This document shows, piece after piece, positions 14,432 to 60,689 of a stretch of DNA of 64,000 nt. Position 1 is the first letter of the stretch, and every line of letters starts with the position of its first letter. The stretch covers positions 6,304 to 70,303 of the forward strand of contig JAAYVG010000005.1 of the NCBI GenBank assembly GCA_012517285.1, in the 5' to 3' direction. Both the position numbers and the translations under genes were made by a program. The notes beneath the pieces are model-generated. The model ran no database searches, had not been told where the DNA came from, and worked only from the letters and a program-made list of their open reading frames with translations. The stretch is from Elusimicrobiota bacterium. Its GTDB lineage: Bacteria > Elusimicrobiota > Elusimicrobia > Elusimicrobiales > UBA9959.

Positions 14432-14439
14432 GAAGGATT

Positions 14440-35273: not shown

Positions 35274-35565
35274 TTATTTGGTTATTTAATCATCAAGATG
35301 AAGACAGATTCATCGAGATGTAAACGGATAAGACATCTGATGAAGACAGATAAATTAGTTATTTAATCATCAGGATGTAAACGGATAAGACATCAGATGA
35401 AGACAGATAAATTGGTTATCTGGTTATTTAGTTGTTTAGTTGTCTGGTTATTTAATGGAAACAGAGGTCAGAAGTCAGATGACAGAAAACAGAAGGCAGA
35501 AGACAGAGCAGGCATGGCGAAGCGGCTTCGGCGTAGGCAGGGACAGAAATCAAAAATCAGAAATA
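35272..35565. repeat. Intergenic repeat mosaic (octamers, five CATCnnGATG ~20-mers, CAGA-heptamers, 33-bp palindrome copy 3)
   Basis: 57-bp-period internal duplication; 35367-35439 is the exact reverse complement of 25014-25086; degenerate palindrome at 35509-35541. Confidence 0.92.
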
Positions 35566-35641
35566 TTAGGAGTTTACTTTTAAAGATTATAATTCTATAA
35601 TATAGTTATAAACAGTAAATATGAGGTTTTGAGGAGGAGGA

Positions 35642-38600
35642 ATGAAAAAAATTTTTTCGTTAATTTCTTTGTTGTTTGTTTCTGTATCTGCTTTTTCATA
35701 CGATAAGATAGATGCTAAGTCTTATCTCGTTGATGCTGCTTTTACTAATGCCAGATCTTTAAGCGTTGATAGCGATATGGTTTATGTATTACTTAACAGC
35801 AAGGTATCTGTTTATTCTTCGACGCTGTCTTATATAAATTCCTTCCCTGTAAACCTTGAGTCACCAGCTTCCATTACAATCGGTGATGGTAAAATATATA
35901 TACTTGATTCTGGAAAATCATCTGTTTCAGTTTATGATAAAAGTGGAAAATTTTTGTTCAACTTTGGTTCTGAGGGCTCTGACAATGGTCAGCTTTTATC
36001 ACCATCCGATATCCTCTATTTCAATGGGAGAATCTTTGTTGCCAACACAAAAAATAAAAAAATAAATGTTTATGATAAGAACGGAATATTTCTTTATGAT
36101 TTTTCTGTTATGTTAAATGATGGCATAACTTACCTGCTCCCTACAAGGATTTCTATCGATCCTTATGGAAATCTTTATGTTGGTGAGTCCAAAAGGAAGG
36201 TTATATTAAAATATGATTTAAATGGGAATTGTATATCAAGCTATGATAGATCAGATTTTCCATTTGCCATAACACAGAATGGTTTGATATATACAGGTAG
36301 CGATGAAGGCAAGGTTAAGGAGTATGACCTTGCTTTTTCACACAGCATGCCATTTGGAACAAAGGGGAAGAATAAATATGAGTTTATGGAGTTCACCGAT
36401 ATAAAGCCTCATGATGGGGGAATATTTGTACTTGATGCTAAAAACAGCAAGATAATATATTTAAAGGTACAGAACAGCTCAGCTCCAAATATTTCAGCTA
36501 ATCGTAGTTTGTGGAAAGAACAGATATCGCTTAACCCAACTGATTCATTTAATATAAAGTCTAATGTCTTTAATATATTAAATGATGGTATAATCTATTA
36601 TCTTAATGACAAACAGAAGGGAGTTTTTGTTCACAGGAAGGATAAGGATGAACTACTTCTTGGCTACGGTGAGGGAAGTAATAAGATCAAAAAGATAAAT
36701 GATATCTTTATTTACGGTGATAAATCATACTTTGCTGATCTTGATGATACTAAAATAAAAGTCTTTGAGAACTTTAAGTATCTTATCAGCTTTGGTGATA
36801 AGGTAGGATTTTTTGGTGGTGGAAAGGATGGAAAGTTCTCAAATCCATCAAAGATTTCTATTGATCTAAATGAGAAAGTTTATGTGCTTGATACGAGCCT
36901 TAATATGATTCAGGTTTTTAACAACGATGGCATATTTTTGTATTCAATAGATCTTGCGTCACTTGATATGAACGGTAAATTCTCAGACATATTTAATGAT
37001 GAGGCTGGAAACCTCTATGCATTATCCTACAGCAGCAAAAAGGTATATGTTATGGATTCCAATGGCAAACTGAGTTCAAGTTTTGATATAAAGGATTCTT
37101 ATAGGCCTCAGTCATTTGCATATGATGGTATTAAATTTATCTTTATACTTGATACAGAGAGATCAAGGGTTTATGTGTATGATAAAACAGGAAACTTCTA
37201 TGCATCATTTTTTGCTAAGGGTGTTACATCAAGAGAGTTTATGAGGCCAGGCAATATAAGGTATAGCAATGGCAGATTGTATATATCTGATGAATCTCTC
37301 GGAAGGATTTCAAGCTTTAAAATTTCATATATACCTGAGATAACCAATTTCAAGATTCTTGGCGAAGATAGTAGGATTAAAATAAGCTGGGATGTCAATA
37401 TTGTGATCAAAAGCAAAGAGATCTTTAGAAGCACTGATAACATAAACTTTACAAGCATTGCAAAACCTGAAAAGAATGAGTATTCTGAGGAAAATCTTCT
37501 CGGTGGTACAACATATTTTTACAAATTAACCGCTACTTCTCTAAGTGGAGATGTCGTATCGGGAGATGTTGTATCATTCTATGTTCAGCCGAAGGAGGAG
37601 GAAAAAACAGAGGTTCTTGAGTCTGCTGATCAGAGTATTAACAACGCAAACAAACCACCACTTGAGATAATAACTGCTGATCTGAAGTATATATTTTCAG
37701 CAAACTATAAATATTATCTTGATAATCCCATAGGAAGCATAACAGTAAAGAACAATACTCAGGATAAGTTTGAGAATATCAAGGTATCGTTCTATCTAAA
37801 GGAGTATATGGATTTTCCTTCCGATATCATAGTAGAGGATCTCCTTCCTAATTCAACGAAAGAGGTAACCATAAAGGCAACCCTTAACAACAAGATCATA
37901 AATATAACAGAGAACACTCCTATTCAGTCTCAGATATCTGTTAAGTATTATTCAGCAGGTGTGGAAAAGGATGTGACACTAAATGTGCCTGTAAAGATTT
38001 TGTCAAAGGATTCCATAGTCTGGGATGATACGAGAAGAATAGCAAATTTTATTACTGTTAAAGATCCTGTTGTCGTTGAAATAGCAAAAAACTTGAATTC
38101 AAAGGTGGATGATATTGATGTAGATGTTGATCCGAGTATAATCACTTTTTCATTTTTTTCAAATTATTTGGCGTCACTTGGAATAAAGTATGTTGAGGAT
38201 CCTGTAACACCGTATAAACTTTCAAAGTCAAGCTCTGATGTTATTATAGATACTGTTCTGTATCCGAGGAATCTTATCAAGATTAAATCAGGTGATTGTG
38301 ATGACCTCACTGTTATGTTTGCCTCTCTCTTTGAGGCTGTTGGAATAAAGACTGTTATAATGGATTATCCTGATCATATCACTCTTATGTTTGAAATAAA
38401 AAACAAAGATCTTTCAAAGATAGGTGTTCCTGAGGATATGATAATAAATTATGATAATTCTTATTATCTGCCGGCTGAGGTTACAATGATTTCAAAGCCT
38501 GTATATGAAAACATATCCTATGCCTCAGCTTTTTATAAAAATAATAAAAATCGTGTCAATTTCTATGATACGAGAGCTGCTCTCACTGTTTATGAGCCTC

Positions 38601-39085
38601 CAACACTTGAATCACAAAGCTCTGAAAATATAAAAATAACTGATGAGCTTGTAAAAAAGGTTAAGGATGATGTAGAATCACTCAGTAAGAAAAACTTTGA
38701 CTATTATCGCAGATACTATCAAAATATAATTGATAATAATCCTGCCGATATATCAGCAAGATTGAGTCTCGGTATATTATACGCTTCAAATATGATGAGC
38801 GATGAAGCCCTTAAAATTTTTAATCAAGTGTTGGAGAGCGATCCGAAAAATCCATCATCGCTTAATAATATTGGAAATATTTATTATATTAAGGGCGATT
38901 ATCAAAAGGCAATAGATTATTATAACAGATCATATGAGATGGATCCATATGATGCAAATATACTGGTAAACATTTCAAGGTGTTATGTAAAGCTCGGTAA
39001 AAGCGATGAGGCAAGATTGTTTTTTAATAAAGCAGTTTCAATCAATCCAGAGCTTAAAAAATACTCTGGTGATATAATAAAGTAA
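35642..39085 (+). CDS. Large secreted protein: NHL beta-propellers, FN3-like domain, transglutaminase-like Cys domain, TPR
   Basis: Signal peptide; NHL repeats (FGSEGSDNGQLLSPSDI, GKFSNPSKI); ISW...YFYKL; SGDCDD...H...E; C-terminal TPR (NNIGNIYY.KGDYQKAI). Confidence 0.8.
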   Translation: MKKIFSLISLLFVSVSAFSYDKIDAKSYLVDAAFTNARSLSVDSDMVYVLLNSKVSVYSSTLSYINSFPVNLESPASITIGDGKIYILDSGKSSVSVYDKSGKFLFNFGSEGSDNGQLLSPSDILYFNGRIFVANTKNKKINVYDKNGIFLYDFSVMLNDGITYLLPTRISIDPYGNLYVGESKRKVILKYDLNGNCISSYDRSDFPFAITQNGLIYTGSDEGKVKEYDLAFSHSMPFGTKGKNKYEFMEFTDIKPHDGGIFVLDAKNSKIIYLKVQNSSAPNISANRSLWKEQISLNPTDSFNIKSNVFNILNDGIIYYLNDKQKGVFVHRKDKDELLLGYGEGSNKIKKINDIFIYGDKSYFADLDDTKIKVFENFKYLISFGDKVGFFGGGKDGKFSNPSKISIDLNEKVYVLDTSLNMIQVFNNDGIFLYSIDLASLDMNGKFSDIFNDEAGNLYALSYSSKKVYVMDSNGKLSSSFDIKDSYRPQSFAYDGIKFIFILDTERSRVYVYDKTGNFYASFFAKGVTSREFMRPGNIRYSNGRLYISDESLGRISSFKISYIPEITNFKILGEDSRIKISWDVNIVIKSKEIFRSTDNINFTSIAKPEKNEYSEENLLGGTTYFYKLTATSLSGDVVSGDVVSFYVQPKEEEKTEVLESADQSINNANKPPLEIITADLKYIFSANYKYYLDNPIGSITVKNNTQDKFENIKVSFYLKEYMDFPSDIIVEDLLPNSTKEVTIKATLNNKIINITENTPIQSQISVKYYSAGVEKDVTLNVPVKILSKDSIVWDDTRRIANFITVKDPVVVEIAKNLNSKVDDIDVDVDPSIITFSFFSNYLASLGIKYVEDPVTPYKLSKSSSDVIIDTVLYPRNLIKIKSGDCDDLTVMFASLFEAVGIKTVIMDYPDHITLMFEIKNKDLSKIGVPEDMIINYDNSYYLPAEVTMISKPVYENISYASAFYKNNKNRVNFYDTRAALTVYEPPTLESQSSENIKITDELVKKVKDDVESLSKKNFDYYRRYYQNIIDNNPADISARLSLGILYASNMMSDEALKIFNQVLESDPKNPSSLNNIGNIYYIKGDYQKAIDYYNRSYEMDPYDANILVNISRCYVKLGKSDEARLFFNKAVSINPELKKYSGDIIK

Positions 39086-39119
39086 AAAAATATTTTATGA
39101 ATCTTTATATGGAGGGTGT

Positions 39120-39581
39120 ATGAAAAAGATTATCTTGGCTGGTTTCTTGGGGATTATAAGCCTGAATGCTTTCTGTGATGATATCAAGCCTTCTGAAACC
39201 AATAAAAAATGGTATGTGGAGGCTGTTAAAAAGGTAAAACTTAAGCTTAATAGTTTATTGAATCCAACAAAAACTGCATCTGTAACATCAGTTTTTGGGA
39301 TAAGGGGTAATAACTATGATTCTAAGAACAGTCTCTACTGGAAGAATATGAACACAGATAAGCTTAACGATAAGATATCAGCTGATAAGAAGGCTCTTGA
39401 ATCAATAATAAAGCAGATTGAAGATGGAAAGATTGATGAAGCAAAAACGGGATTAAAGAATTTTATTAAGAACAACCCAAACAGTTATATCATAAATGAC
39501 GCAAAGGAACTTTTAAATAACTTAAACAGTGAAAGTTCTAATAGTGATTCCAATACTGATGATGCTGGTGATGAAAAATAA
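39120..39581 (+). CDS. Hypothetical secreted protein with TPR-like C-terminal hairpin
   Basis: Signal peptide, GGAGG RBS, G.IDEAK..LKNFIKNNPNS. Confidence 0.7.
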   Translation: MKKIILAGFLGIISLNAFCDDIKPSETNKKWYVEAVKKVKLKLNSLLNPTKTASVTSVFGIRGNNYDSKNSLYWKNMNTDKLNDKISADKKALESIIKQIEDGKIDEAKTGLKNFIKNNPNSYIINDAKELLNNLNSESSNSDSNTDDAGDEK

Positions 39582-39582
39582 T

Positions 39583-40197
39583 CTATCTCTTTGATAGATC
39601 AATGAGTGTTTCATAGAGCATATTGTCTATAACATATTTTTCTTTTCCTGAAAATATTGAAATTGGATAGAACGGGAAAAGCAGAAGATGAAATGTGGTT
39701 TTAACCTCTCCAGTTTTTTCAAATTTGTATTCTTTATCGTTCTGCTCTGCTGTTACAAACATACGGTATGTAACCTTTAAAGATGCCGGAAGGATAAGAA
39801 TATATCCAGTGTCAACAAGAAATGTTGAAAATAATTCTGAATAATTCCATCTACCGTATGTTAAAAGAATAATCTTTACAGTTCCTGTCCCGTTTGTTTC
39901 ATCATACATATTACTTTCTTTAAATTTTTCTATTACTCTCTTCTTAAACTTTATATAATCATCATCATCTACTTCCTGAGGTGTGAGTGTATTGAGATCC
40001 TTTTCAAGACGATTGACCTTGTTGTAATCAGTGTAGCTGTAGTTTTTCCACTGAACAAGTATTTGTTTGTATGGATTTTTGGCTGTTTTCTCTAAGTCTA
40101 ATATCTCATTTCTCGGTATCAGTTTGGTCTTGCTTGTTGATACGCAGGATGAGAGGAAAAGAATGACAGCAAAGAATAGAATATTTATTTTTTTCAT
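39583..40197 (-). CDS. Hypothetical lipoprotein (start reassigned to MKKINIL)
   Basis: Lipobox LSSC after the ATG at 40197; the ORF-track start at 40239 adds a non-signal leader. Confidence 0.65.
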   Translation of the reverse strand: MKKINILFFAVILFLSSCVSTSKTKLIPRNEILDLEKTAKNPYKQILVQWKNYSYTDYNKVNRLEKDLNTLTPQEVDDDDYIKFKKRVIEKFKESNMYDETNGTGTVKIILLTYGRWNYSELFSTFLVDTGYILILPASLKVTYRMFVTAEQNDKEYKFEKTGEVKTTFHLLLFPFYPISIFSGKEKYVIDNMLYETLIDLSKR

Positions 40198-40303
40198 CAA
40201 ATTTATTATACAAATTTTTATATTATTTTTTCTAATCACATTATAAATTTTTTAGATTTGAAAAAAAAATTTATAATTTGTATATTAATCTTAGGAGAGG
40301 TTT

Positions 40304-42157
40304 ATGAATAAAAAAACAAATAAAAGTGTTAATATAACCAATAAAAAAATGAGTGTTATAAGATTTGCTGGCGATAGCGGTGATGGAATACAACTTGTTG
40401 GAACACAGTTCGCAAATGCAACCGCTATAGCTGGGAATGAGCTTTCAACACTTCCTGATTATCCAGCAGAGATAAGGGCTCCTCAGGGGAGCCTCGGTGG
40501 GGTGAGTGGCTTTCAGGTAGCATTTGGAAACGAATCTGTTATGAGTCCTGGTAGCAGGGCTGATTTTCTGGTTGTTATGAATCCAGCAGCCTTAAAGGTT
40601 AACATAAAGTATCTTGACAGGGGAAGTGTTGTTGTTGCAAACTCCAGCAACTTTACACCTGATAATCTTAAAAAGGCCGGTTATGATTCTAATCCTCTCG
40701 AGGATGGATCGCTTTCAAACTATAGAGTTTTATCTGTGGATGCAAACTATCTTGTTGAAGAAACGCTTAAGGATACTGGACTTACTAAATCTGAGATATT
40801 AAAAACAAAGAATTTCTTTATGCTTGGGGTTCTTTACTGGATATTTGATCTTCCAATTGAGGTAACAGCAAAATGGATTGATGAAAAGTTTAAAAAGAAT
40901 CCTAAGATTGCTGATGCAAATAAAAAAGTTTTATATGCCGGTTATAATTATGCAGAAAATACTGAGATGTTTGATGCAAGATTTAATATAGAAAAGGGTA
41001 ATCTTTCAAAGGGTAAATATCATAACGTTACTGGCAATGAAGCAAGTTGCTATGCCCTCATTGCTGCATCAAAAAAATTAGGAAGAAAAGTTTTTTATGG
41101 TTCATATCCTATAACGCCTGCTACTGAGATACTCCATACTTTTTCAAAGCTCAAAAGCAAAGATATCGTTGTTTTTCAGGCTGAGGATGAGATCGCTGCT
41201 ATATGTGCTTCAATAGGTGCAGCCTATTCTGGGTGTCTTTCCTCAACAGGAACAAGCGGGCCTGGACTTTCTCTTAAAACAGAAGCTCTTGGTCTTGCCG
41301 TCATAAGCGAGCTTCCTCTCGTGGTGGTGGATGTTCAGAGAAGTGGACCATCAACCGGGATACCAACAAAGACAGAGCAGTCGGATCTTTTTATATCAGC
41401 GTTTGGGAGACATGGTGATTCTCCGCTTGTTGTTCTTGCTGCAAGAAGTCCTGCTGATTGCTTTTATACCGTTTATGAGGCCTCAAGGCTTGCGGTTAAG
41501 TATATGACTCCAGTGATAGTTCTTACATCGGCCTATATCGCTCAGGGATCAGAACCATTCAAAATTCCATCAAATTCGGAGTTAAAAAATTTTGAGATAG
41601 AAAAGTTGCCTTCAGCTGATTTGTTCAAGCCGTATATGAGAAATCCCGAAACATTTGTTAGACCATGGGCATATCCTCCTATGAAGGGATATGAGCACAG
41701 AATAGGTGGACTTGAAAAAACCAATATTGCCGGTAATGTCAGTCATGAACCAGAGAATCATCAGATCATGACCGATTACAGAATCGGCAAGATAAAGAAG
41801 GTTCAGTCTGATATTCCGCCAACTGAGATCTATGGCAACAAGGATGCTGATATGGTTGTGGTTGGATGGGGTTCAACCTATGGTGCTATGATGAGTGCTG
41901 TTCAACTGGCTAATTCTAAGGGGATAGATACTGCTTTCATAAATATGAAGTATTTAAATCCTTTACCAGCGGATCTCGGTGATAAGCTTAATAAATATAA
42001 AAAGATAGTTGTGATCGAAGAAAATAAAGGGCAGATGGCATTTGTTTTAAAAGGAAATTATCTTGTTGATATCGTAAGCAGAACAAAGGTTACAGGTCAA
42101 CCATTTACAACTGAGGAGATACTCAATATAATTGAGGAAGAGTTTAGAAATAGATGA
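40304..42157 (+). CDS. korA: 2-oxoacid:ferredoxin oxidoreductase subunit alpha
   Basis: IRFAGDSGDGIQL, YPAEIRAP, YPITPA, QAEDEIAA, SGPG and HRIGGLEK motifs. Confidence 0.95.
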   Translation: MNKKTNKSVNITNKKMSVIRFAGDSGDGIQLVGTQFANATAIAGNELSTLPDYPAEIRAPQGSLGGVSGFQVAFGNESVMSPGSRADFLVVMNPAALKVNIKYLDRGSVVVANSSNFTPDNLKKAGYDSNPLEDGSLSNYRVLSVDANYLVEETLKDTGLTKSEILKTKNFFMLGVLYWIFDLPIEVTAKWIDEKFKKNPKIADANKKVLYAGYNYAENTEMFDARFNIEKGNLSKGKYHNVTGNEASCYALIAASKKLGRKVFYGSYPITPATEILHTFSKLKSKDIVVFQAEDEIAAICASIGAAYSGCLSSTGTSGPGLSLKTEALGLAVISELPLVVVDVQRSGPSTGIPTKTEQSDLFISAFGRHGDSPLVVLAARSPADCFYTVYEASRLAVKYMTPVIVLTSAYIAQGSEPFKIPSNSELKNFEIEKLPSADLFKPYMRNPETFVRPWAYPPMKGYEHRIGGLEKTNIAGNVSHEPENHQIMTDYRIGKIKKVQSDIPPTEIYGNKDADMVVVGWGSTYGAMMSAVQLANSKGIDTAFINMKYLNPLPADLGDKLNKYKKIVVIEENKGQMAFVLKGNYLVDIVSRTKVTGQPFTTEEILNIIEEEFRNR

Positions 42158-42202
42158 TGTAGTTTTTTGTAATTGTGATTAGAAAAAATACAGGAGGAGA
42201 AT

Positions 42203-43189
42203 ATGACAAAGTTAACGCCGAATGATTTCTCATCAAATTTACCGATAAAGTGGTGCCCAGGATGTGGAGATTATGCTATACTGAATTCTGTAAAAAAATC
42301 AATGGCGGAGCTGGGTATAGATCATGAAAAGTATGTCGTGGTTTCAGGTATAGGTTGCTCAAGCAGGTTTCCCTATTATGTTAATACATATGGATATCAT
42401 ACCATTCACGGAAGGGCTATACCAGTGGCTACTGGTATAAAGCTTTCTAATCCTGATCTTATGGTTTTCGTTGTAACTGGTGATGGGGATTGCCTTTCTA
42501 TAGGTGGGAACCATTTCATCCATGGAATAAGAAGAAATATTGGGCTTAAAGTTCTGATGTTTAATAACAGAATTTATGCACTTACAAAGGGTCAGGCCTC
42601 TCCTACAACACTTCCAGGCGCAAAAACAAAAACAACACCTTATGGAAGCACAGACTATCCATTCAATCCTATGCTTTTTGCAGTTGGGATGAGAGCTCCG
42701 TTTGTAGCAAGGAGTATTGACACTGATATAAATGGAACATCTTCAATAATAACAGAGGCAGCTAAGAATGAGGGCTTTGCATTCGTTGAGATACTTCAAA
42801 AATGTGTTGTCTTCACTGATAAAGAATTTGATGTCTTTAAAAATCCTGAGACCAAGGATGATATGATTGTAAGAATAGAGGATAAAAAACCTATGATCTT
42901 TGGCAAGAATAGAAATAAGGCTATTGTTGTTGAGAATAATACACCAAAGATTGTTGAGTTTGATCCGTCTATCGTCCCATCAAATCTTACTATATATGAT
43001 TCTTCAGATGTAAATTTAGCATATATCATATCCTCGCTTATGCCACCTGAGTTTCCATTACCGCTTGGGATTTTTTTAAGATTTGCTAAAACATCTTATG
43101 AGAATTTATTTTATAACAGCGTGAAAGATGTAGCCACCCCTTCTTCTGTTGAAGAAATATTAAAAGAAAGCACATATGAGATAAAATAA
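42203..43189 (+). CDS. korB: 2-oxoacid:ferredoxin oxidoreductase subunit beta
   Basis: WCPGCGD, SGIGCSSR, HGRA, TPP motif GDGD...NN and LTKGQASPT. Confidence 0.95.
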   Translation: MTKLTPNDFSSNLPIKWCPGCGDYAILNSVKKSMAELGIDHEKYVVVSGIGCSSRFPYYVNTYGYHTIHGRAIPVATGIKLSNPDLMVFVVTGDGDCLSIGGNHFIHGIRRNIGLKVLMFNNRIYALTKGQASPTTLPGAKTKTTPYGSTDYPFNPMLFAVGMRAPFVARSIDTDINGTSSIITEAAKNEGFAFVEILQKCVVFTDKEFDVFKNPETKDDMIVRIEDKKPMIFGKNRNKAIVVENNTPKIVEFDPSIVPSNLTIYDSSDVNLAYIISSLMPPEFPLPLGIFLRFAKTSYENLFYNSVKDVATPSSVEEILKESTYEIK

Positions 43190-43195
43190 TTTATT

Positions 43196-43221
43196 TAGGG
43201 TTCACTGAGAAGTGAACCCTA
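43196..43221. mobile_element. Collapsed MITE (terminal inverted repeats only), forming a hairpin after korB
   Basis: TAGGGTTCACT-GAGA-AGTGAACCCTA; the arms are identical to the outer 11 bp of the TIRs at 9101 and 9375. Confidence 0.8.
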
Positions 43222-43320
43222 TTTAGTAAAAATTAAATAAATATTTAATATAATAAATTTATAACATAGTTATGAGACGATTGGAAGAATTAATAAGTAT
43301 CTAATCGTTATATATTTTTT

Positions 43321-44472: not shown

Positions 44473-45014
44473 TCAAAATAAACCTTTCTCCTAAAAATTA
44501 TGTTGATAAAATTTATTCAAGTGTTTTTGCTGCAAAGGTTGCTCTGGGCGGAATATCTTTGTTCATAATTTTATTTGTTCTTTTTGTCTTTCACTATACT
44601 TCTTTTAGAAATCTTCAGGTTGATTATTATGTGAAACAGAAGGAGTATGAGCTGTTGAAGAAGGATGTGGATCGTTCCAATGATATACAAAAGCAGATAA
44701 ATGAAATAAACAATTATATATCAGCCGTTGATAAAATAAACAAAAATAGATTCTTATATATAGCTTTTATGCAGGATATCGTTAACAACCTTCCTGAGAC
44801 AATGTGGTTTGGAGGTATAACAACAGTTTCAAAGACTGATCATATAGAAGTGAGTATAAATCTTAACTCCAATTCACTTGAGGATATGGTGTGGTGGTAT
44901 TCCCTTTTGGATAAAAGTTCTAAAAGATATTCCAATGTAAAAATCTCTCAGATAATGTCAAATGGAGATTTTTATAATACACAGCTAACATTTAGTTATG
45001 ACTACGAAGTATGA
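44469..45014 (+). CDS. pilN: Type IV pilus assembly protein PilN
   Basis: MIKINL.P motif, TM helix, coiled coil, LPETMW. Confidence 0.85.
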   Translation: MIKINLSPKNYVDKIYSSVFAAKVALGGISLFIILFVLFVFHYTSFRNLQVDYYVKQKEYELLKKDVDRSNDIQKQINEINNYISAVDKINKNRFLYIAFMQDIVNNLPETMWFGGITTVSKTDHIEVSINLNSNSLEDMVWWYSLLDKSSKRYSNVKISQIMSNGDFYNTQLTFSYDYEV

Positions 45015-46008: not shown

Positions 46009-46011
46009 TCT

Positions 46012-50836: not shown

Positions 50837-50854
50837 ATTTAATAGAATATTATT

Positions 50855-53298: not shown

Positions 53299-53305
53299 GC
53301 ATATT

Positions 53306-54871
53306 CTATTTTTTTTCCTGATATTCCTGTTCAGTGTTTATATCCCATATCTCAGTCTTATCAGTATTGTTTAATATACACTCTGCTGCCTTTATCCCTG
53401 TTAGCATTGAGTGATCCATGTTGTTATATCTATGCATCCCGTTTCTTCCTATAGGGTATAAGTTTTTAATGCCATTTAAAAAGTCTTTTATCCTATCAAT
53501 TTCCTCATATGCTCCAAAATATGCTGGATATGCCTTTTCTGTTCTTATGGCTGTTCCATCAAGGAAGTCATTGCTATCTATGATGCCAACATTTGAAAGA
53601 TCTTTTATTGCGATATCTATTAAGTCCTTATCATCTTTACTCCACAGATGATCATTTTCATTACAGAAGTATTCAACCCCAAGCCATATTTTGTTAACAT
53701 CGTTTAAAAGATATGGGCTCCAGTTGTTAAATATTTGCAACCTTCCTGCTACTATACCGCTATCCTGTAAGTATATCCAGTTATCAGGAATAATATTATT
53801 AACGGTTCTTTCACCGCTTTTATTCTTTACCTTCATCCTTTTCATTAAAAGCCCGACAGCTATAAAATCTCTATACAAAAGTTCGTTTGATAATCTTGCA
53901 ATATTCTCATCCTTTTTATTAAAAGCATTTATTAAATCTTTTATCGGCATTGATGATATGAGATAATCTGCGTTATAGTTTGCAATTTCTCCTGTTAGTT
54001 TATTTTTAGTGGTTATGGAAAGAACTCTATCATTCTCTATATTAATACCAATAACCTCAGAGTTTTTAATTATAACTCCACCAGCAGCCTCTATCCTTTT
54101 TGCCATCTCATCCCACATCTGACCGGGTCCTAACTTTGGATAATAAAACTGCCTTATCAAGGTTGTTTCAACAGCTTTTGTGGTTTTATATCTGCTTGAA
54201 AAAGTATTAAGAAATATATCCTTTAAAATGGATGATATAGAAAGCCCCTGAACTCTCTGTGCACCCCAATCCGGTTTTATCTCATTACAATTTATACCCC
54301 ATACCTTTTCCGTATAATCCTTAAAAAATGTCAGATAAAGCTCTTTACCAAATCTATTAATAAAAAAATCCTCTAAATTTTTCTCATTTTTTATTGGCGA
54401 TACCATGCTTTTCATATAGCTGAGTCCGATTTTTGTCATCTTACTGAGTCCAAGATTTCTTATGGTGTTATAGTTAAGTGCAACAGGATAATCAAAGAAT
54501 TTATGCATATAGTATATTCTTGATGTCCTTTTCCTTATGAGCATGACATTATCTTCTTTTTCTGGGTCTGGCCCATTGGTGTTATAATCAATATTTCTGT
54601 ATCTTTCTGTAATTATATCATCGCTTGATGGAAATCCTTGTATAGGCATTATTTCTGTCCAGAGTTTTAATATATCATCAGATTTGCTATAAAACCTGTG
54701 GCCACCGATATCTATTCTGTTTCCTTTGTAAGACTCTGTTCTTGCTATACCACCGAGAATTGCTCTTTTTTCTATTATTACTACATTATAATCCTTATTT
54801 TTTACAAGCTCATATCCAGCTGTAAGCCCCGCTGGTCCACCACCTATTATTATCACATTTTTTTTGTTCAT
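53306..54871 (-). CDS. FAD-dependent oxidoreductase (PRK07208-like)
   Basis: IIGGGPAGL, DIGGHRF, YTEKVWG and GRNGMHRYNNMDHSM motifs. Confidence 0.9.
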   Translation of the reverse strand: MNKKNVIIIGGGPAGLTAGYELVKNKDYNVVIIEKRAILGGIARTESYKGNRIDIGGHRFYSKSDDILKLWTEIMPIQGFPSSDDIITERYRNIDYNTNGPDPEKEDNVMLIRKRTSRIYYMHKFFDYPVALNYNTIRNLGLSKMTKIGLSYMKSMVSPIKNEKNLEDFFINRFGKELYLTFFKDYTEKVWGINCNEIKPDWGAQRVQGLSISSILKDIFLNTFSSRYKTTKAVETTLIRQFYYPKLGPGQMWDEMAKRIEAAGGVIIKNSEVIGINIENDRVLSITTKNKLTGEIANYNADYLISSMPIKDLINAFNKKDENIARLSNELLYRDFIAVGLLMKRMKVKNKSGERTVNNIIPDNWIYLQDSGIVAGRLQIFNNWSPYLLNDVNKIWLGVEYFCNENDHLWSKDDKDLIDIAIKDLSNVGIIDSNDFLDGTAIRTEKAYPAYFGAYEEIDRIKDFLNGIKNLYPIGRNGMHRYNNMDHSMLTGIKAAECILNNTDKTEIWDINTEQEYQEKK

Positions 54872-55272
54872 ATCTTTACACTAAATACCAGATATTTCCT
54901 GCCAAAAAAATTCCATACAAGAACTATTGCAGTTGATATCAGTTTTGAATACATATAATACACACCATACTTAGCAGTTAAAATCCACATAATAAGCTGA
55001 TTAAGCAAAAGTCCAATAACTCCTATTATGCTGAAGAACAAAAACTCAATATTTTTATTCTTTATGTTTCTCTCATCAAACACCCATATGGTGCTTAGCA
55101 CATAGTTAACCAAAAGCCCTGCTGTAAATGATATTGCTGATGAAACAAGGTAGTACAGAGCAAACTCTTCTGTTAAAAGCCAGAGCACAAAATAATCTAC
55201 AGCAAAGGATATACCACCAACAACACAGTATCTTGAAAACTGATGAATAGACTTTTTAAAACAGAAATTCAA
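54868..55272 (-). CDS. GtrA family membrane protein
   Basis: QF.RY.VVGG...VD, NY.LS..WVF and WNF..RK..VF signatures. Confidence 0.93.
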   Translation of the reverse strand: MNFCFKKSIHQFSRYCVVGGISFAVDYFVLWLLTEEFALYYLVSSAISFTAGLLVNYVLSTIWVFDERNIKNKNIEFLFFSIIGVIGLLLNQLIMWILTAKYGVYYMYSKLISTAIVLVWNFFGRKYLVFSVKI

Positions 55273-55276
55273 CTTA

Positions 55277-56671
55277 TTAATCCTCTTGCAGGGTTATAAC
55301 CTTTCCAAAGTTTTCAAGTGGTTTTGCAAATTTTTTAGAATCACCTATAACAAATATCTGTGAGTTTTTAGTATCATAGAACTCTTTTGCAGAGTTAACC
55401 ATGTCTTTAATTTTTACTGCATCTATTCTTGATGTATAATTTGAAAGATAATCAGGTTTGTATCCGTAGAGATCATAGCTTGCTATCTCATCAAGGAGTG
55501 CTGATTGTGTCTGAAATCTAAATACAAACGAGTTGATTATCTCTGATTTAGCCATATCAAACTCTTTTTCGTCTATCTTATCTGTTTTAACCTTTTCCAT
55601 CTCTAAAAAAACCTGTTCTATTGCTTCGTTAACGCTTTCAGGTTTTGTTCCAAGATATGTCATTATAAAGCCAGCCTTATTTCGCTTTGAAAAATATGAA
55701 TAAACGCTGTAAGCAAGCCCTCTCTTTGATCTTATCTCATTACCTAATCTGGACTGTATCCCTCCACCCATATACTCGCTTAAAACTGTGAGTGGATACT
55801 CCCTGTCATCGTGCCTTGCTATACCCTTGTTAAGTATGACAACAAATGCCTGTTTCAACGGTTTGTCTATAAGATATACAGTTCTTGTATCAGGTGTTTG
55901 AGGCAGTGCTATGTCTGGAAGCTTTACATCTCCCATCTGAATATCTCCAAACTCTTTTTTTATTTTATTGTTCATCTCATTCTCATCAAAATCACCTGCG
56001 ATAGAAACTATCATATTGTTCGGTATTATAAAATTATCCCTGTATGCCTTTAAATCATCCACTGTGATTTTGCTTATTGTTTCAATCTCAGATCTCATAC
56101 CGTATGGATGGTTTTTACCAAAAAAAATCCTTAACGCCTCTCTTGTTGCCTGTCTGTCAGGGTTATCATTTCTTCTTTTGACCATTTCTATGGCTTCCTG
56201 TTTTTTTAGCTCAAATTTCTTCTCTTCAAAAGCAGGGTTTTTTATAAGATCTGAAAGAATGTTAAAAACTTCATCAAAGTCTTTCTTATGAGAAAACATT
56301 GATATGCTTGCTTCTTCAGGGCTTATTGATGTTGTTATCTCAGCACCTAAATACTCTAATTTTTTATCAATCTCATCAGATGAAAAATTTTTACTGCCAC
56401 CATTTCTTAATACCTCAAAGAAAAGGCTTCCAAGCCCTGCTTTTTCCTGAGGGTCATAAACGGTCCCAGTTTTAATTAAAACTTCCATCCTGACTGTTGG
56501 CAATGTTGCATCCTTTTTTATGTATATCTTTAATCCGTTATCAAGGATTAATGGTTTTACAACAGGTGGTTTGAATTCCACATTACCATAGTGCGGTATA
56601 TTAAGATTGTTTGAATAAAGATTTATGTTCATAATCATTGCTCCAGTAATAAAATAAATAATTTTTTTCAT
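55277..56671 (-). CDS. M16 peptidase, non-catalytic subunit
   Basis: L.NGLKIY fold start; HxxEH absent (GLGSLFFE); SRL..EIRSKRGLAY motif. Confidence 0.9.
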   Translation of the reverse strand: MKKIIYFITGAMIMNINLYSNNLNIPHYGNVEFKPPVVKPLILDNGLKIYIKKDATLPTVRMEVLIKTGTVYDPQEKAGLGSLFFEVLRNGGSKNFSSDEIDKKLEYLGAEITTSISPEEASISMFSHKKDFDEVFNILSDLIKNPAFEEKKFELKKQEAIEMVKRRNDNPDRQATREALRIFFGKNHPYGMRSEIETISKITVDDLKAYRDNFIIPNNMIVSIAGDFDENEMNNKIKKEFGDIQMGDVKLPDIALPQTPDTRTVYLIDKPLKQAFVVILNKGIARHDDREYPLTVLSEYMGGGIQSRLGNEIRSKRGLAYSVYSYFSKRNKAGFIMTYLGTKPESVNEAIEQVFLEMEKVKTDKIDEKEFDMAKSEIINSFVFRFQTQSALLDEIASYDLYGYKPDYLSNYTSRIDAVKIKDMVNSAKEFYDTKNSQIFVIGDSKKFAKPLENFGKVITLQED

Positions 56672-56687
56672 AGGATCTCCTTAATAT

Positions 56688-58220
56688 TCACTTGCTTTCT
56701 ACTATATATACAGTAGTTCTGTTGCTTCTTGTGAGGTATTTGGTTACAACATTAACAACATCCTCACTCCTGACCATTTTTATCTTTTCAAGCATATTCC
56801 ATGAAAACTTCCAGTTCCCCATTATCTGCTCATTGTATGCAAGTGTCTGAGCAAACTCAAGATTCGATTCAAGCCCTTTTATTAAATTTATCTGATAATT
56901 ATTTATAACCTTATCTATTTCCCATTGCGTTGGTGGGTTGTTCTTGAATTCTGATATTTCTTTCATTATTTCATCATCAAGGGACTGGACATCTGTATCG
57001 CCTTTAGGAGCTGAAGCAATAACAAAAAGTGATGGATATCTGTCACCTGGAGTTGAGGCATAGGCTCCGGTGTATAGAGCCATATTCTTTTCCTCCACAA
57101 GTGATTTATAAAGCCTTGATGTACTGCCATTTGCTAGTATATCAGCAGCAACTATTAACGCTGGCATATCAGCTGAGTTAATTCCAGGGTTTTTAAATCC
57201 CATTATTATGGATGATTTTGATGGAAATGATACCTTTATTATTTTTTCCTCTATTTGCTTTGGTTCCTTTGTATAATTTGTATCAGTTATGTTTGAGGCT
57301 TTCCAGTCAGCAAAATATTTTTCAGCTAACTTGATTGTCTTTACAGGATCTATATCACCAACTATAGCAAGCGTTGCATTGTTCGGTACATAAAATTTCT
57401 GATAGAAAGCGAATGCGTTGGGCCTTAACAGATGTGATACATCATCCTCAAATCCTATAACAGGGTTATGATATGGATGTGCTATAAATGCGTTTGAAAA
57501 AAGCTTATCCCAGCTTATTCTATTAGGGTTTGTTTCATACATCCTCAGCTCCTCATGGACCACATCCCTTTCCTTATAAAAATCCCTCATAGCAGGATTT
57601 TTGAATCTATCAGACTCTATTTTAAAATATGCTTCCATTCTATCGGCTGGAAGCTCTATGACATAACCTGTATAGTCATTTGATGTGAATGCGTTTAGAT
57701 TGTGCTGACCTAACTCATTGTATATTTTCCATAGTTCTTCTCTTATCTGATACTTCTCTGCCTCATCTGTAAGCTTTTTGTATTCTTCATTCAATTTCTT
57801 TAATTTTTCCTCATCCCTTAACTCTTTTTTATCCTCACTTGAGATCTCTGACTGAATTTCATCTATCCTATCAAGGATCAGCTTCTCCTTTTCATAGTCC
57901 TTTGTCCCTATGTTTGCAGTTCCTTTAAAAGCCATATGTTCAAACATATGAGCAAGCCCAGTCTGGCCTTGGATATTGTCAACATTACCAACCTTAAACA
58001 TCATAGTATATGATACAGTCGGTACAAAATTTTTTTCAAGCATCAGTATCTTTAAACCATTTTTGAGTTTATATGAAATCACCTGAGGATACTGTGGATT
58101 TTCCTCAACAGTAGCTCCCATTTTTTTTAGTTCATTAGCTGTTTCTTTTTCCATAGAATAGACTCCCTGTGAAAGCATTAAAGTTAAAAAAAACATAACA
58201 AGTTTCATTTTTTCCTCCAA
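56688..58220 (-). CDS. M16 zinc peptidase, catalytic subunit
   Basis: GLAHMFEHMAFKG (HxxEH), NAFTS, ERDVVHEE and HPY motifs; signal-peptide-like N-terminus. Confidence 0.94.
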   Translation of the reverse strand: MEEKMKLVMFFLTLMLSQGVYSMEKETANELKKMGATVEENPQYPQVISYKLKNGLKILMLEKNFVPTVSYTMMFKVGNVDNIQGQTGLAHMFEHMAFKGTANIGTKDYEKEKLILDRIDEIQSEISSEDKKELRDEEKLKKLNEEYKKLTDEAEKYQIREELWKIYNELGQHNLNAFTSNDYTGYVIELPADRMEAYFKIESDRFKNPAMRDFYKERDVVHEELRMYETNPNRISWDKLFSNAFIAHPYHNPVIGFEDDVSHLLRPNAFAFYQKFYVPNNATLAIVGDIDPVKTIKLAEKYFADWKASNITDTNYTKEPKQIEEKIIKVSFPSKSSIIMGFKNPGINSADMPALIVAADILANGSTSRLYKSLVEEKNMALYTGAYASTPGDRYPSLFVIASAPKGDTDVQSLDDEIMKEISEFKNNPPTQWEIDKVINNYQINLIKGLESNLEFAQTLAYNEQIMGNWKFSWNMLEKIKMVRSEDVVNVVTKYLTRSNRTTVYIVESK

Positions 58221-58308
58221 CTTAGCTTTACTTTTGCTTTAAATATTATATAATTTTTTTAAGAGTAAATTATAAATTTATAGGCCTTATGGCAAAGGGG
58301 AGTTTCTT

Positions 58309-60402
58309 ATGAACAGAATCCAATCTCATCCGGTCTTGGATGTTCCTCAAAAAAAGGAAATAAAATTTTATTTTGATGATAAAGAGCTTGTAGGTTATGA
58401 GGATGAAATGATATCATCAGCACTTTTTGCAAATGGTATAAAAATATTTAGCTATCATAGAAAGGACAACTCACCTCAGGGAATCTTCTGTGCTAATGGA
58501 CAGTGCTCTCAGTGCAGCGTTGTGGCGGATAACATGGTGGTTAAGGCATGTATAACAAAGATAAAAGAGGGTATGAGGATTCAAACTTTGAAGGGTCTTA
58601 GAAAGCTCAATATTGAAAAAGATATTCATTTTAATTATTCAAAAATAGAAGAGATTGAAACCGATGTCCTAATCATTGGTGGTGGGCCGAGCGGTCTTAG
58701 AGCAGCCTCAGAGCTTGGAAGGTTTGCACTTAATGTGATACTTATTGACGATAAGGATAAATTAGGTGGCAAGCTTGTGCTTCAAACTCATAAATTTTTT
58801 GGTTCTGTTGAAGACTGTTTTGCTGGGACTCGTGGTATAGATATAGCTGATAAGCTTTCATCAGATTTGGCTGAATATCCATTCGTTAAATACTGGACAG
58901 GTTCAACAGCTTTTGGAGTGTTTGCTGATAAAAAAATAGGTATTGTCAGGGATGACACCTGCTGTCTTATAAAGCCAAAGGCTGTGATATTTGCAACAGG
59001 GGCAAGGGAAAAAACTCTTATTTTTGAAGGCAATACGCTGCCGGGTATATATGGTGCTGGTGCATTTCAAACACTGCTTAACAGAGATCTTGTAAAGCCA
59101 TCATCCAATCTATTTGTCGTTGGTGGTGGAAATGTTGGTCTGATAGCATCATATCATGCTATACAGGCTGGTGTTAATGTCGTTGGATTGTGTGAGATAG
59201 CCAATAAATGTGGTGGATATAAGGTTCATGAGGATAAAATAAGAAGACTCGGTGTCCCAATATTTAATAATCATACTGTATTAAAAGCTGAGGGCTCAGA
59301 TATGATTGAAAGGGTTATTATATCGGAGGTTGATAAAAATTTCAAACCTATAAAGGGTAGTGAAAAGGTTTTTGAGGTTGACACACTGCTCGTTGCAGCA
59401 GGACTAAATCCTGTGAATGAGCTTTATGAACAGGCTTTAAATTGTCAGATTCCATCATTTATATGCGGTGATGCCGAGGAAATTGCAGAAGCTTCAGCTG
59501 CAATGTTCAGTGGACGAATTGCTGCTCATAAGGTTTTAAAACATCTTGGATTTGTAACGAGCGATGTTCCGAAGTTCTGGTTCGATAAATTAGAGGTTTT
59601 AAAATCAAGGCCAGGCAAAACATATGAAAATATTAAAAATTCTGTTACAAATATTGTTTATCCATCCATTCATTGTAATCAGGAGATTCCGTGCAATCCA
59701 TGTGTGACGGTATGCCCTAAAAAATCAATAAAACTCAGTGGTGATAGCATAGTAAATATTCCAAAGTTCAGCGGTGATTGTATAGGCTGTTTTAAATGTC
59801 TTTTGATATGCCCGGGGTTAGCAATAACAATTGTTGATAAAAGGAAAGACATTAATAATCCAACAGTATGGATCCCTTTTGAGGTGGATGCTGGAATAAA
59901 AAAAGGTGATAAGGTCAAGGCTGTGGATATAAATGGGAATTTTTTAACCGAGGCTGAGGTGGTTGATGTTAGATTTTTTAATGCTGAAAAGACGGCAGCT
60001 ATAGCTATCAAAATTGATGCTGCTATGGCTGATGATGTTGCCTCAATAAAAATAATAAATCCAGAAACATTTAAAAAAACTGATGCCGATATATCACTTA
60101 TGAGTGATGATGTTATAATATGTCGGTGTGAGAGGGTTAAGCTTGGGGATATAAGGAAATGGATAAGAAGGGGAGTAAGAGATCTCAATCAACTCAAGGC
60201 CCTTACAAGGCTAGGTATGGGAGCATGTGGATCCAAAACTTGTTCAAGCCTTATTATGAGCATAATGAGGTCTGAGGGTATAAATCCACAGGATGTGACA
60301 GAGCTAACAAAAAGGCCATTTTTTGTTGAGATAAATTTTGGTTCTTTTGCTGGCTTAAACAAAAAAGAAGAGGAAACTAAGAATAAATTCAGTGACTTCT
60401 GA
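58309..60402 (+). CDS. Fused 2Fe-2S / FAD-NAD oxidoreductase / 2x4Fe-4S / BFD-like 2Fe-2S protein (sarcosine oxidase alpha or proline dehydrogenase-like)
   Basis: GIFCANGQCSQC...C, GGGPSG, ATGARE, GGGNVG, CNPCVTVCP, CIGCFKCLLICP and CRCE...GMGACGSKTC motifs. Confidence 0.88.
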   Translation: MNRIQSHPVLDVPQKKEIKFYFDDKELVGYEDEMISSALFANGIKIFSYHRKDNSPQGIFCANGQCSQCSVVADNMVVKACITKIKEGMRIQTLKGLRKLNIEKDIHFNYSKIEEIETDVLIIGGGPSGLRAASELGRFALNVILIDDKDKLGGKLVLQTHKFFGSVEDCFAGTRGIDIADKLSSDLAEYPFVKYWTGSTAFGVFADKKIGIVRDDTCCLIKPKAVIFATGAREKTLIFEGNTLPGIYGAGAFQTLLNRDLVKPSSNLFVVGGGNVGLIASYHAIQAGVNVVGLCEIANKCGGYKVHEDKIRRLGVPIFNNHTVLKAEGSDMIERVIISEVDKNFKPIKGSEKVFEVDTLLVAAGLNPVNELYEQALNCQIPSFICGDAEEIAEASAAMFSGRIAAHKVLKHLGFVTSDVPKFWFDKLEVLKSRPGKTYENIKNSVTNIVYPSIHCNQEIPCNPCVTVCPKKSIKLSGDSIVNIPKFSGDCIGCFKCLLICPGLAITIVDKRKDINNPTVWIPFEVDAGIKKGDKVKAVDINGNFLTEAEVVDVRFFNAEKTAAIAIKIDAAMADDVASIKIINPETFKKTDADISLMSDDVIICRCERVKLGDIRKWIRRGVRDLNQLKALTRLGMGACGSKTCSSLIMSIMRSEGINPQDVTELTKRPFFVEINFGSFAGLNKKEEETKNKFSDF

Positions 60403-60404
60403 AA

Positions 60405-60689
60405 TAGTGGTCAGTGCCTGCCTGCCGAAGCCGCTTCGGCGCAGGCAGGGACAGTGGTCAGTGGACAGCAAAACAAAAGCAGTGATCAGAAAAAACAAAC
60501 AGCAATAGTGGACAGAAGACAGAACTCAGAAAACAGAAGTCAGATGTCAGAAAACAGAACTTGCCTGCCGAAGCCGCTTCGGCGCAGGCAGGGACGGAGG
60601 ACAGAAAAGGCAAAAGCGATAATGGTCAGCGAATAAGGTGATTCCTTTTACTGACAACTATCCACAAATCACTGATCACTAATCACTGA
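60405..60689. repeat. Intergenic heptamer mosaic with 33-bp palindrome copies 4 and 5
   Basis: CAGTGG and CAGA heptamers; palindromes at 60417-60449 and 60560-60592; spacer GAATAAGGTGATTCCTTTT and inverted ACTGATC arm as at 9460-9517. Confidence 0.92.

Follow-up and report, generated by a model that had tools for sequence, protein, structure and literature searches.

A 33-nt hairpin repeat set in one register of heptamer arrays in an Elusimicrobiota genome: a candidate very small mobile DNA

Introduction

The small dispersed repeats (SDRs) of Nostoc, as Elhai and colleagues are said to have described them in 2008, are 21–27 nt long, often lie within tandem heptamers or mini-transposons and can be nested; their mobility was reportedly judged from comparisons between strains. 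We know of no enzyme for SDRs and, to our knowledge, how very small repeats such as REP and SDR move has been an open question since they were described. Heterocystous cyanobacteria also carry STRR arrays, which are 7-nt intergenic tandem repeats that vary by whole units. The Rickettsia palindromic elements are larger (approximately 100–150 bp), are confined to one genus and are tolerated in frame in protein genes.

The small dispersed repeats of Nostoc and its relatives are described as very small hairpin-forming repeats (PMC3116915, PMC5861425). SDR5 has a fixed target, the HIP1 octamer, and among HIP1-rich cyanobacteria no SDR-like repeats were found outside the Nostocaceae (PMC5861425). 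In REP sequences a conserved tetranucleotide, GTAG, precedes the palindrome on its 5' side (PMC8266576).

Here we describe a 33-nt hairpin, E, from a member of the Elusimicrobiota. Positions are those of the window, by which we mean the whole stretch of 64,000 nucleotides that was analysed.

Results

E is GC-rich and consists of CCT or CTT followed by GCCTGCCGAAGCCGCTTCGGCGCAGGCAGG, these two 5' ends marking its two main subtypes. The predicted DNA fold, at −14 kcal/mol (z = −3.5), is a hairpin of 14 bp that includes a bulge of 2 nt, closes in a loop of 3 nt and spans E entirely from its first base to its last. The 30-nt core had 4 matches in the window at ≤ 3 mismatches, compared with 0 in 100 shuffles. 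The copy at 60417..60449 (+ strand) has the master sequence, is of the CCT type and interrupts a CAGTGNN array after CAGTG and before GA (TAGTGGT CAGTG-E-GA CAGTGGT); the CTT-subtype copy at 60560..60592 (+) lies between CAGAA and GA (CAGAAAA CAGAA-E-GA CGGAGGA); and the copy at 35509..35541 (+), between CAGAG and GA (CAGAAGA CAGAG-E-GA CAGAAAT), belongs to a subfamily whose 5' arm diverges (GCATGGC) and whose hairpin is weaker (−6.8 kcal/mol). These three junctions read exactly as a previous sequence-only reading of this DNA had given them. That reading had also placed a copy at 7501 after position 5 of a heptamer, and the copy at 7501..7533 (−) does follow CAAAG, with E in the flipped orientation with respect to the CAG strand; directly after it, at 7534–7547, come 14 nt of the 5' part of another E, of the CTT type.

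To the left of the copy at 35509 is a heptamer array of ACAGAAG repeated 6.7 times (35461..35507, +). The copies at 60417 and 60560 are separated by heptamer arrays (60449..60559, +; TRF rows 60449–60468 and 60511–60559) and share with them an intergenic block of 322 bp (60394..60715); in both congeners the gene pair around this block is spaced by 8–9 bp. A fifth copy (15445..15477, −) lies outside any array, 370 bp downstream of a RAYT-like gene. It sits within a repeated non-coding element of approximately 200 bp, and a shortened copy with the divergent arm adjoins it at 15478–15506.

The host genome, a MAG/metagenome assembly of 1.96 Mb with 34% GC, contains 111 copies of E at the threshold we used (≤ 5 mismatches) and 82 at ≤ 3 mismatches. 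CAGNNNN heptamer arrays hold 66 of the 111, and the remaining 45 are outside arrays, others of these being inside repeats of approximately 200–320 bp. Perfect cores number 27 and occur in both array and non-array contexts; E has probably been active recently. Dereplication of the 66 array copies gave 54 flank clusters, 50 of which had CAG at position −5 or +3 relative to the junction, or at both (binomial vs 1/7: 1e−37), with 4 exceptions, and removal of E restored the 7-nt period at 50 of the 54 array sites. The dominant bond is CAGNN^NN, between heptamer positions 5 and 6 and mostly in the form CAG-W-R^G-W; the letter at +1 was G in 52 of 58 copies vs 55% in background heptamers. Within strict arrays, 6 of 7 interruptions that contain E shifted the phase by 5 (33 mod 7), and the phase was kept by 25 of 34 interruptions free of E. 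No flanking direct repeat or target-site duplication was seen around E at the 54 dereplicated array sites. Compiling the flanks of every genomic copy, as the sequence-only reading had proposed, shows a register preference and no consistent duplications. The single orientation which that reading had described holds at its three cited sites but not genome-wide, as 57 array copies are forward and 9 flipped, all at one identical bond.

In another organism, E forms an in-frame insert of 11 amino acids in an IS66 transposase (L056), between DSHNSH and KPPSSDG. These 11 codons were absent from all 15 aligned IS66 homologues, and the motif was uninterrupted in 116 of 120 matches. On one contig of the host (C35) two paralogous elements align without gaps over 120 nt at 98.3% identity if one E is taken out, and E-less paralogues spanning the junction exist for 17 array copies. 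We also considered a 34-nt or 35-nt element and a 2-nt duplication, which were rejected because only 33 nt agrees with the reading frame of the IS66 gene and with the E-less paralogues. Sites that lack E do occur, in the form of E-less paralogues, of the 11-codon insertion in IS66 and of presence or absence between strains. As far as sequence comparison goes, the idea of a minimal, discrete mobile hairpin which occupies one array register without target duplication is supported; its copy number, register, lack of duplication and exact 33-nt insertion are direct observations. In four public runs (three studies) the region was kept as contigs that end at or inside E copies, so that these contigs showed no filled or empty joint and yielded no empty allele. 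A search of contig C31 for an autonomous parent bounded by E turned up nothing but repeated intergenic modules set among ordinary genes.

At ≤ 3 mismatches, none of 40 related species, two congeners among them, yielded a copy of E (vs 82 copies here), and these E-free relatives share the gene order. Heptamer arrays without E do occur in relatives, with 318 array windows in one of them (G017), and are patchy within one family of the host phylum. When interrupted arrays were sought in G017, G021, G015, G028 and G006, there were only continuous or degenerate arrays among the matches listed. The identical E sequence was present at 22 loci in 10 MAGs and 12 further metagenome loci, representing 18 distinct contexts; the E-bearing MAGs belong to Lentisphaerae, Kiritimatiellae, Victivallales, Verrucomicrobiota, the PVC group, Omnitrophota, Cytophagales and Saccharibacteria. 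Outside the host species the letter at −1 was G in 13 of the 18 contexts (p = 6e−4), and we found no common target outside arrays beyond this preference. As the flanks are R^G in arrays vs G^Y in other phyla, a single sequence-specific target rule is not established. Searches of IMG/VR viral contigs and PLSDB plasmids found no E, and a text search of the literature for its letters gave 0 matches. The absence of E from relatives and its identical copies in other phyla suggest that it was acquired horizontally.

A strain 98.0–99.8% identical to the host had 10 of 17 E sites in common with it. None of the 7 polymorphic sites was a clean 33-nt indel: one was 47 nt (33 + 14), two were rebuilt arrays and four were blocks of approximately 120 nt to 1 kb, meaning that the differences always took in extra heptamers or whole blocks, although it should be noted that both strains are MAG/metagenome assemblies in which repeats may be mis-assembled. 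Other indels between the strains were mostly multiples of 7 or 8. The CTT subtype followed CAGAA in 11 of 11 clusters and the CCT subtype in 1 of 23 (Fisher 4e−8), and the heptamer upstream of CTT-subtype copies was also biased. Beyond the first few bases, similarity among the flanks of E did not exceed that among random array windows, which speaks against long co-converted tracts, with little weight since the background is small and biased (134 bonds from long perfect arrays). The link between subtype and flank, the turnover between strains, the absence from relatives and the identity across phyla were all observed directly. Because the subtypes track heptamer letters and strain differences involve heptamers or blocks, array recombination explains part of the pattern, and it may account in part for the constancy of the register. 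The proposal that heptamer arrays are landing sites for E therefore keeps its fixed bond but is weakened in its strict form by these same two observations.

The genome has three RAYT-like genes, which matched NF047646 at 58–73 bits, under the 80-bit cut-off; a search for an IS200-type TnpA found only these. The one in the window (14440..15075, +) is a Y1 gene of 211 aa with HFH and YIHLNP motifs, a candidate mobiliser that is unsupported as the mobiliser of E. Just upstream of it is an inverted pair of another REP family (14336..14433) with the core AACCGCGTAGGTT, which is likely the cognate repeat of this gene. That family bears GTAG and has 50 copies, paired 74 bp apart. The RAYT-like genes on contigs C40 and C25 are flanked by a GTAACCGCGTAGGTTAC-type repeat and the one on C31 by a different hairpin, then GTAGG; the GTAACC-type repeat of this other REP family also flanks RAYT homologues in two relatives (G001 and G017). 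E is near only 1 of the 3 genes, and there it lies 370 bp off, inside another repeat. The resident RAYT apparently serves another repeat.

Discussion

We consider it probable, with some reserve, that E is a non-autonomous, acquired mobile hairpin of 33 nt, the register of which reflects preferred insertion together with array recombination. That E moves by transposition we infer from its distribution alone, and the split between insertion and recombination, like any enzyme acting in trans, is likewise a matter of inference. A putative trans-supplied enzyme would paste E as an exact 33-nt unit without target-site duplication. True insertions would be few and would favour the bond between heptamer positions 5 and 6; this preference could reflect the resemblance of the heptamer CAGNG to the 3' end of E (...GGCAGG) and the tendency of E to follow G outside the species. 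Rapid unit-wise recombination of arrays and composite blocks would copy E together with neighbouring heptamers and so preserve the register, and E could flip in place via its 9-bp arms.

The sequence-only reading had attributed E to a RAYT or IS200-type HUH (Y1) enzyme, which would bind the bulged hairpin on single-stranded DNA, cleave after CAGNN and insert E each time in a target-specific way. The bulged hairpin, the absence of duplication and the fixed bond would all fit, as would the three RAYT-like genes, of which one has an E copy 370 bp away, and Y1_Tnp, which was matched in all 5 E-carrying genomes tested, 4 of them exceeding the cut-off. The flank dinucleotide is also complementary to bases 2–3 of E in the two main subtypes (AG/CT and AA/TT), which recalls the pairing of guide and cleavage site in RAYT and IS608 (PMC8266576), and the heptamer CAGNG resembles the CAGG at the 3' end of E. 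However, this complementarity does not extend to copies flanked by CAGTG or CAGAT, nor to two CTT copies (one non-array and one flipped in an array), and Y1_Tnp also matched 6 of 14 control genomes. The RAYT genes here and in G001 and G017 are flanked by the other, GTAG-type REP, and 20 of the 40 relatives have RAYT homologues while 0 of the 40 have E. The master copy of E has GCGCAGG inside its 3' arm, with GCAG in the stem, and lacks GTAG 5' of the palindrome, where the neighbours vary with context; GTAGG appears only in C-to-T variants. There was no replication-strand bias either, with 48 of 111 copies on the G-rich strand (p = 0.18), as judged by the rough proxy of local GC skew in draft contigs. 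Given the separate REP at the RAYT genes, the E-free relatives with RAYT and the lack of skew bias, the attribution is not supported, and we regard it as unlikely. Less likely still is the idea of E as a self-contained transposable unit of 33 nt, moved by a putative trans enzyme common to distant phyla, with the arrays as true landing pads and a guide at the foot of the hairpin. Four adjacent heptamer bases would then act as the guide, like GTAG in REPs, and base 2 of E would change in step with the target (C where it has G, T where it has A); if true, target choice would be programmable by one base, and E would be the smallest mobile DNA described so far.

There are two further readings. One founder could have entered an array at an arbitrary bond, the other array copies arising by gene conversion, unequal exchange or block duplication; this would keep the register and lack duplications, because copying of array blocks does so by nature. 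The linkage of subtype to flank and to the biased heptamer upstream of CTT copies, the strain polymorphisms (0 of 7 clean, one being 47 nt of E plus two heptamers) and the variation of arrays by whole units between strains all agree with it, and flipping in place accounts for 9 reversed copies at one bond. We nevertheless find it doubtful, as E occurs in two array types (CAGTGNN and CAGARNN) with flanks matching on both sides, at least 4 flank haplotypes all have perfect cores, flanks beyond approximately 7 nt are not unusually similar, and the 45 non-array copies and 18 foreign contexts show E inserting on its own. It is far less probable, indeed scarcely credible, that E is immobile, a functional hairpin (protein-binding site, RNA stabiliser or terminator) under selection that spread with its carriers only. 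E is strongly intergenic, with 13 of 111 copies in open frames of at least 120 codons though these cover 90% of the genome, it is predicted to be very stable as RNA too (−22 kcal/mol), and it keeps 27 perfect cores despite AT pressure. Set against this, no T-run follows E, both orientations are present, relatives with the same gene order lack it and one copy is in frame within an IS66 transposase gene; compensatory covariation in the stem was not above shuffles (3 cells vs a mean of 2.9) and no Rfam family matches.

If E is the non-autonomous, acquired hairpin which we favour, it is among the smallest mobile DNAs known. It places unusually sharp constraints on how tiny repeats may move: the unit is exactly 33 nt, it comes with no duplication, it occupies a single bond of a 7-nt repeat, the second base of each subtype tracks the target, several phyla carry identical copies, and a resident RAYT apparently serves another repeat. 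Such constraints can be carried straight over into cleavage and strand-transfer assays on oligonucleotides. Outside the cyanobacteria, too, tiny hairpins are seen to travel with heptamer arrays, and what looks like target specificity in elements of this sort may in part be a side effect of recombination of the arrays.

Unlike MITEs, which combine terminal inverted repeats with a target-site duplication, E shows no duplication. With IS200/IS605 elements and the miniature elements derived from them it has in common the absence of a duplication, and may have in common hairpin-dependent insertion beside a short fixed sequence; those elements insert 3' of a tetra- or pentanucleotide, and E follows CAGNN in arrays but outside them only a G at −1 (13/18). 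They also need distinct left and right subterminal hairpins and guides, whereas E is one hairpin with no room for these and has no replication-strand bias. Like the Rickettsia palindromic elements, E is tolerated in frame, adding 11 codons to the IS66 transposase, but it is 33 nt long and occurs in several phyla. The host arrays of E, as 7-nt intergenic tandem repeats variable by whole units, resemble STRR arrays; here, however, they are the substrate rather than the element, and are patchy in one family of another phylum. E resembles the REP/REPIN-RAYT system in being a bulged imperfect palindrome in the 20–40-nt range with many intergenic copies, no duplication and RAYT-like genes in the genome (PMC3116915, PMC8266576). 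It differs in lacking the 5' GTAG, in not being the repeat that sits beside the RAYT genes, in occurring mostly as single copies and not doublets, and in its presence in several phyla, REP families being specific to a lineage. With SDRs, compared here by description only, E shares the form of a very small dispersed hairpin in heptamer arrays (66/111), with others in repeats of approximately 200–320 bp, and differs in its length of 33 nt, its non-cyanobacterial host and its identity across phyla. Overall, E appears to be of the same kind as REP and the cyanobacterial SDRs found in heptamer arrays, with new features.

Sequence and distribution of the element

The 33-nt hairpin element (E; master sequence CCTGCCTGCCGAAGCCGCTTCGGCGCAGGCAGG) is predicted to fold as DNA into 14 bp with a 3-nt loop and a 2-nt bulge on the 3′ side (−14 kcal/mol, equalled by 1 of 200 shuffles), and its computed fold as RNA has −22 kcal/mol. 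Four copies interrupt runs of the heptamer CAGNNNN in the window: 60417-60449 (CAGTG/GA, the slash marking the junction), 60560-60592 (CAGAA/GA), 35509-35541 (CAGAG/GA) and 7501-7533 (after CAAAG/). The sequence-only reading had described these four sites exactly, and at each the heptamer returns once E is removed. A fifth copy (15445-15477) lies outside any array. At ≤ 3 mismatches the 30-nt core of E has 4 matches in the window, vs 0 in 100 shuffles. The copy at 7501-7533 directly abuts 14 nt (7534-7547) from the 5′ part of another E, of the CTT type described below. At 35310-35451, adjoining the heptamers, are a 57-bp repeat (× 1.9) and an octamer array (TGGTTATC × 4.9), modules which recur beside E elsewhere; octamer arrays differ by 8 or 16 nt between strains.

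The genome of the window (G000, Elusimicrobiota bacterium GCA_012517285.1; 1.96 Mb, 52 contigs, 34% GC, rated 97% complete; the window is C25:6304-70303) contains 111 copies of the core at ≤ 5 mismatches and 82 at ≤ 3, including 27 perfect cores despite being AT-rich. Heptamer arrays hold 66 copies; relative to the CAG strand, E is forward in 57 and flipped in 9. The other 45 lie in an element of ~ 315 bp, another of ~ 200 bp, E-E pairs in tandem and a small number of unique sites. Only 13 of the 111 fall inside open frames of at least 120 codons, which make up 90% of the genome.

E occupies one register of the heptamer

Array sites were dereplicated by single-linkage clustering of 21 + 21-nt flanks, giving 54 clusters. 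CAG was found at −5 and/or +3 from the junction in 50 clusters and not in 4 (binomial vs 1/7: 1e−37), so the claim of one fixed register is borne out genome-wide, with 4/54 deviating. Flipped copies use the same bond as forward copies. G directly follows the junction in 52 of 58 copies, vs 55% of background heptamers. In strict arrays the phase was shifted by 5 in 6/7 interruptions containing E and kept in 25/34 E-free interruptions; no GC-rich hairpin was found among these 34. The fixed bond is real.

E comes in three subtypes: CCT, the master; CTT; and a third whose 5′ arm diverges (CCAGCATGGC). Among dereplicated forward array sites, CAGAA precedes CTT in 11/11 clusters and CCT in 1/23 (Fisher 4e−8), CAGAA-type units being about half of background. 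A or T is kept at this position in E-less paralogues, so the base is part of the target and not of the element. This link is consistent with copying of E plus its neighbouring heptamer. A guide-like rule (AG pairs with CT, AA with TT) would also fit, but is broken by CAGTG and CAGAT flanks and by two CTT copies, one non-array and one flipped in an array. The outer flanks of E showed no unusual similarity when set against a weak control.

In the ~ 315-bp non-coding repeat, E occurs at the same place in both orientations (C3:28561, C18:56 and C45:56 vs C6:10239, C35:30402, C44:21046 and C44:91528), with identical outer arms and only the interior inverted. This supports flipping of E in place through its 9-bp arms.

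E is inserted as exactly 33 nt without target duplication

Empty sites exist within the genome: the joined flanks of 27 of the 111 copies, 17 of them array sites, have an ungapped paralogous match elsewhere in G000. One array example (...gtcagag/gacagaaaac...) matches at 95.7% over 69 nt. On C35, taking out one E leaves two copies of a larger repeat that are 98.3% identical along their full 120 nt.

In two metagenome loci of another organism (L056:2001-2033 and L034:342-374) E lies in frame within the DUF6444 region of an IS66-family transposase (Pfam DDE_Tnp_IS66, DUF6444, zf-IS66), adding 11 residues (...DSHNSH-LPAPKRLRQAG-KPPSSDG...). Exactly these residues are missing from 15/15 aligned homologues (79-89% identical); the motif is uninterrupted in 116 of 120 homologue matches and the insert is present in none. 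Since the reading frame is kept, a 33-nt insertion without a duplicated base has no alternative here. The 5′ edge is also constant: in the genome contig scan, whose search pattern left out the first three bases of E, 21 of 22 loci start with CCT. The absence of target duplication is thus upheld by E-less paralogues, the 11-residue insert and constant edges, and on these alignments E is a discrete pasted unit. An insertion sequence such as this could be a vehicle moving E between hosts.

E is foreign to the lineage and occurs in other phyla

A search of 40 related genomes (2 of the same genus, 22 of the same family and 16 of the same order) gave no copy of E at ≤ 3 mismatches; counting G000, 34 of the 41 genomes searched were ≥ 90% complete. 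The genes flanking 60394-60715 are 322 bp apart in G000 vs 8-9 bp in both congeners. Heptamer arrays are patchy within the family and also present without E: one relative (G017), with 318 array windows, lacks E, and the two congeners have no array windows.

Among 185,579 species genomes, 10 contain exact E, at 22 loci in all: a Lentisphaerae MAG with 12 copies, three Kiritimatiellae and MAGs from Victivallales, Verrucomicrobiota, the PVC group, Omnitrophota, Cytophagales and Saccharibacteria. It also occurred at 12 metagenome loci of other organisms (45-70% GC), and was not found in viral contigs or plasmids. Judged by this distribution and by the 27 perfect cores in an AT-rich genome, E is foreign to the lineage and recent.

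Several of the 18 distinct contexts outside the species (L004-L058) are loops of other hairpins or composite repeats. G stands on the left in 13/18 and a pyrimidine on the right in 15/18, lengthening the stem by one pair; in four, TG, TGG or TTGG lies on both sides of E. At L055:2001-2033 (also L048 and L058), E is in the open frame of a UvrD-like gene, upstream of its helicase domains in a stretch that may be translated, and adjoins 12-nt periodic repeats (TGCGGTGACTTC-like).

Fast turnover of E sites in a close strain

Seventeen metagenome loci belong to a close strain whose sequence is 98.0-99.8% identical to that of G000. The strain has 17 E sites, of which 10 were common to both and 6 absent from G000; one G000 copy (C43:21148) was missing in the strain. 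The remaining strain site has three E in 438-bp tandem repeats (L051:2001-2909) matching G000 contig ends (C51:1-5310 and the end of C19); the E copy at C51:2246 is inside a 1770-codon open frame with heptamer arrays.

Looking for empty alleles in sister strains had been suggested as a check. Presence and absence were seen at 7 sites, but none was a clean 33-nt difference: one was a 47-nt indel of E plus two heptamers (L050), in two the arrays to either side of E were rebuilt (L046, L060) and four involved whole blocks ~ 120 nt to 1 kb long (L035 twice, L052, L040). Further indels between the strains comprised five of 7 nt, three of 14 nt and one of 21 nt, and others of 8 and 16 nt. Both assemblies are metagenome-derived, so misassembly could account for some of the differences between arrays. 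All strain-specific copies obey the register.

In one block absent from the strain (C43:21065-21213, ~ 150 nt; L035:~507), E and then a central loop lie between a CAG-heptamer arm and an inverted arm of CTG heptamers. The block has TTAAA at both borders, so inverted-array blocks of this kind may themselves be small transposons that duplicate 5 bp.

Resident RAYT-like genes have another hairpin

Mobilisation by a REP-associated tyrosine transposase (RAYT) or similar HUH enzyme had been proposed. G000 has three proteins with Y1_Tnp matches (209-212 aa, with HUH and Tyr motifs), one encoded at 14440-15075 in the window; the three score 58-73 bits on the NCBIfam RAYT model, below its 80-bit cut-off. 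The genes on C40 and C25 are flanked by inverted pairs of a hairpin other than E (GTAACC-GCGTA-GGTTAC, GTAG inside); this GTAG-bearing hairpin (GTAACCGCGTAGGTTAC) has 50 copies in G000, its pairs often 74 bp apart. The C31 gene has a different hairpin then GTAGG just upstream. The GTAACC-type motif also adjoins RAYT homologues in G017 and the congener G001. Positions 14336-15075 of the window and C40:60770-62000 resemble a classical REPIN system. In the other congener (G002), all three RAYT homologues have one in-frame stop each (TGA, TAG and TAA at C7:37042-37683, C36:32360-32902 and C7:33513-34100).

RAYT substrates are described as having GTAG 5′ of a palindrome, a bulge and CT cleavage sites (PMC8266576). 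E shares the bulge but lacks GTAG. RAYT homologues occur in 20 of the 40 relatives, none of which has E. The orientation of E does not follow GC skew (48/111). In E-carrying genomes of other phyla, Y1_Tnp matches were present in 5/5, 4 above the cut-off, vs 6/14 controls. The lack of GTAG, the separate REP flanking the RAYTs and the relatives with RAYT but no E speak against these enzymes as mobilisers, and no evidence linking E to the resident RAYT-like enzymes was found. E works somewhat like a REP, yet failed the tests of membership in that system.

Origin of the fixed bond and comparison with known repeats

The mini-element is genuine and discrete and has spread horizontally. A serious rival account of its register is a single founder insertion followed by recombination alone, and recombination has left traces: amplification within arrays is shown by the link of subtype to flank, by the indel of 33 + 14 nt and by block turnover. 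Perfect copies occur in two array types and several flank haplotypes, G is favoured at −1 in foreign contexts (13/18) and the heptamer CAGNG is like E's own CAGG end. We therefore think that the fixed bond is partly an insertion preference of E: some insertions would favour one heptamer bond, and array recombination would then amplify this preference.

The letters of E had no match in the literature searched, and E had no match in Rfam. Elhai et al. in 2008 reportedly described very small mobile repeats inside heptamer arrays of Nostoc. PMC5861425 names the HIP1 octamer as the insertion site of one such class, SDR5, and reports no SDR-like repeats in HIP1-rich cyanobacteria other than Nostocaceae. 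What is new here is a quantified single-bond register, an exact 33-nt insertion without duplication, proven at the level of aligned sequence, a link between subtype and target, and evidence against the resident RAYTs.
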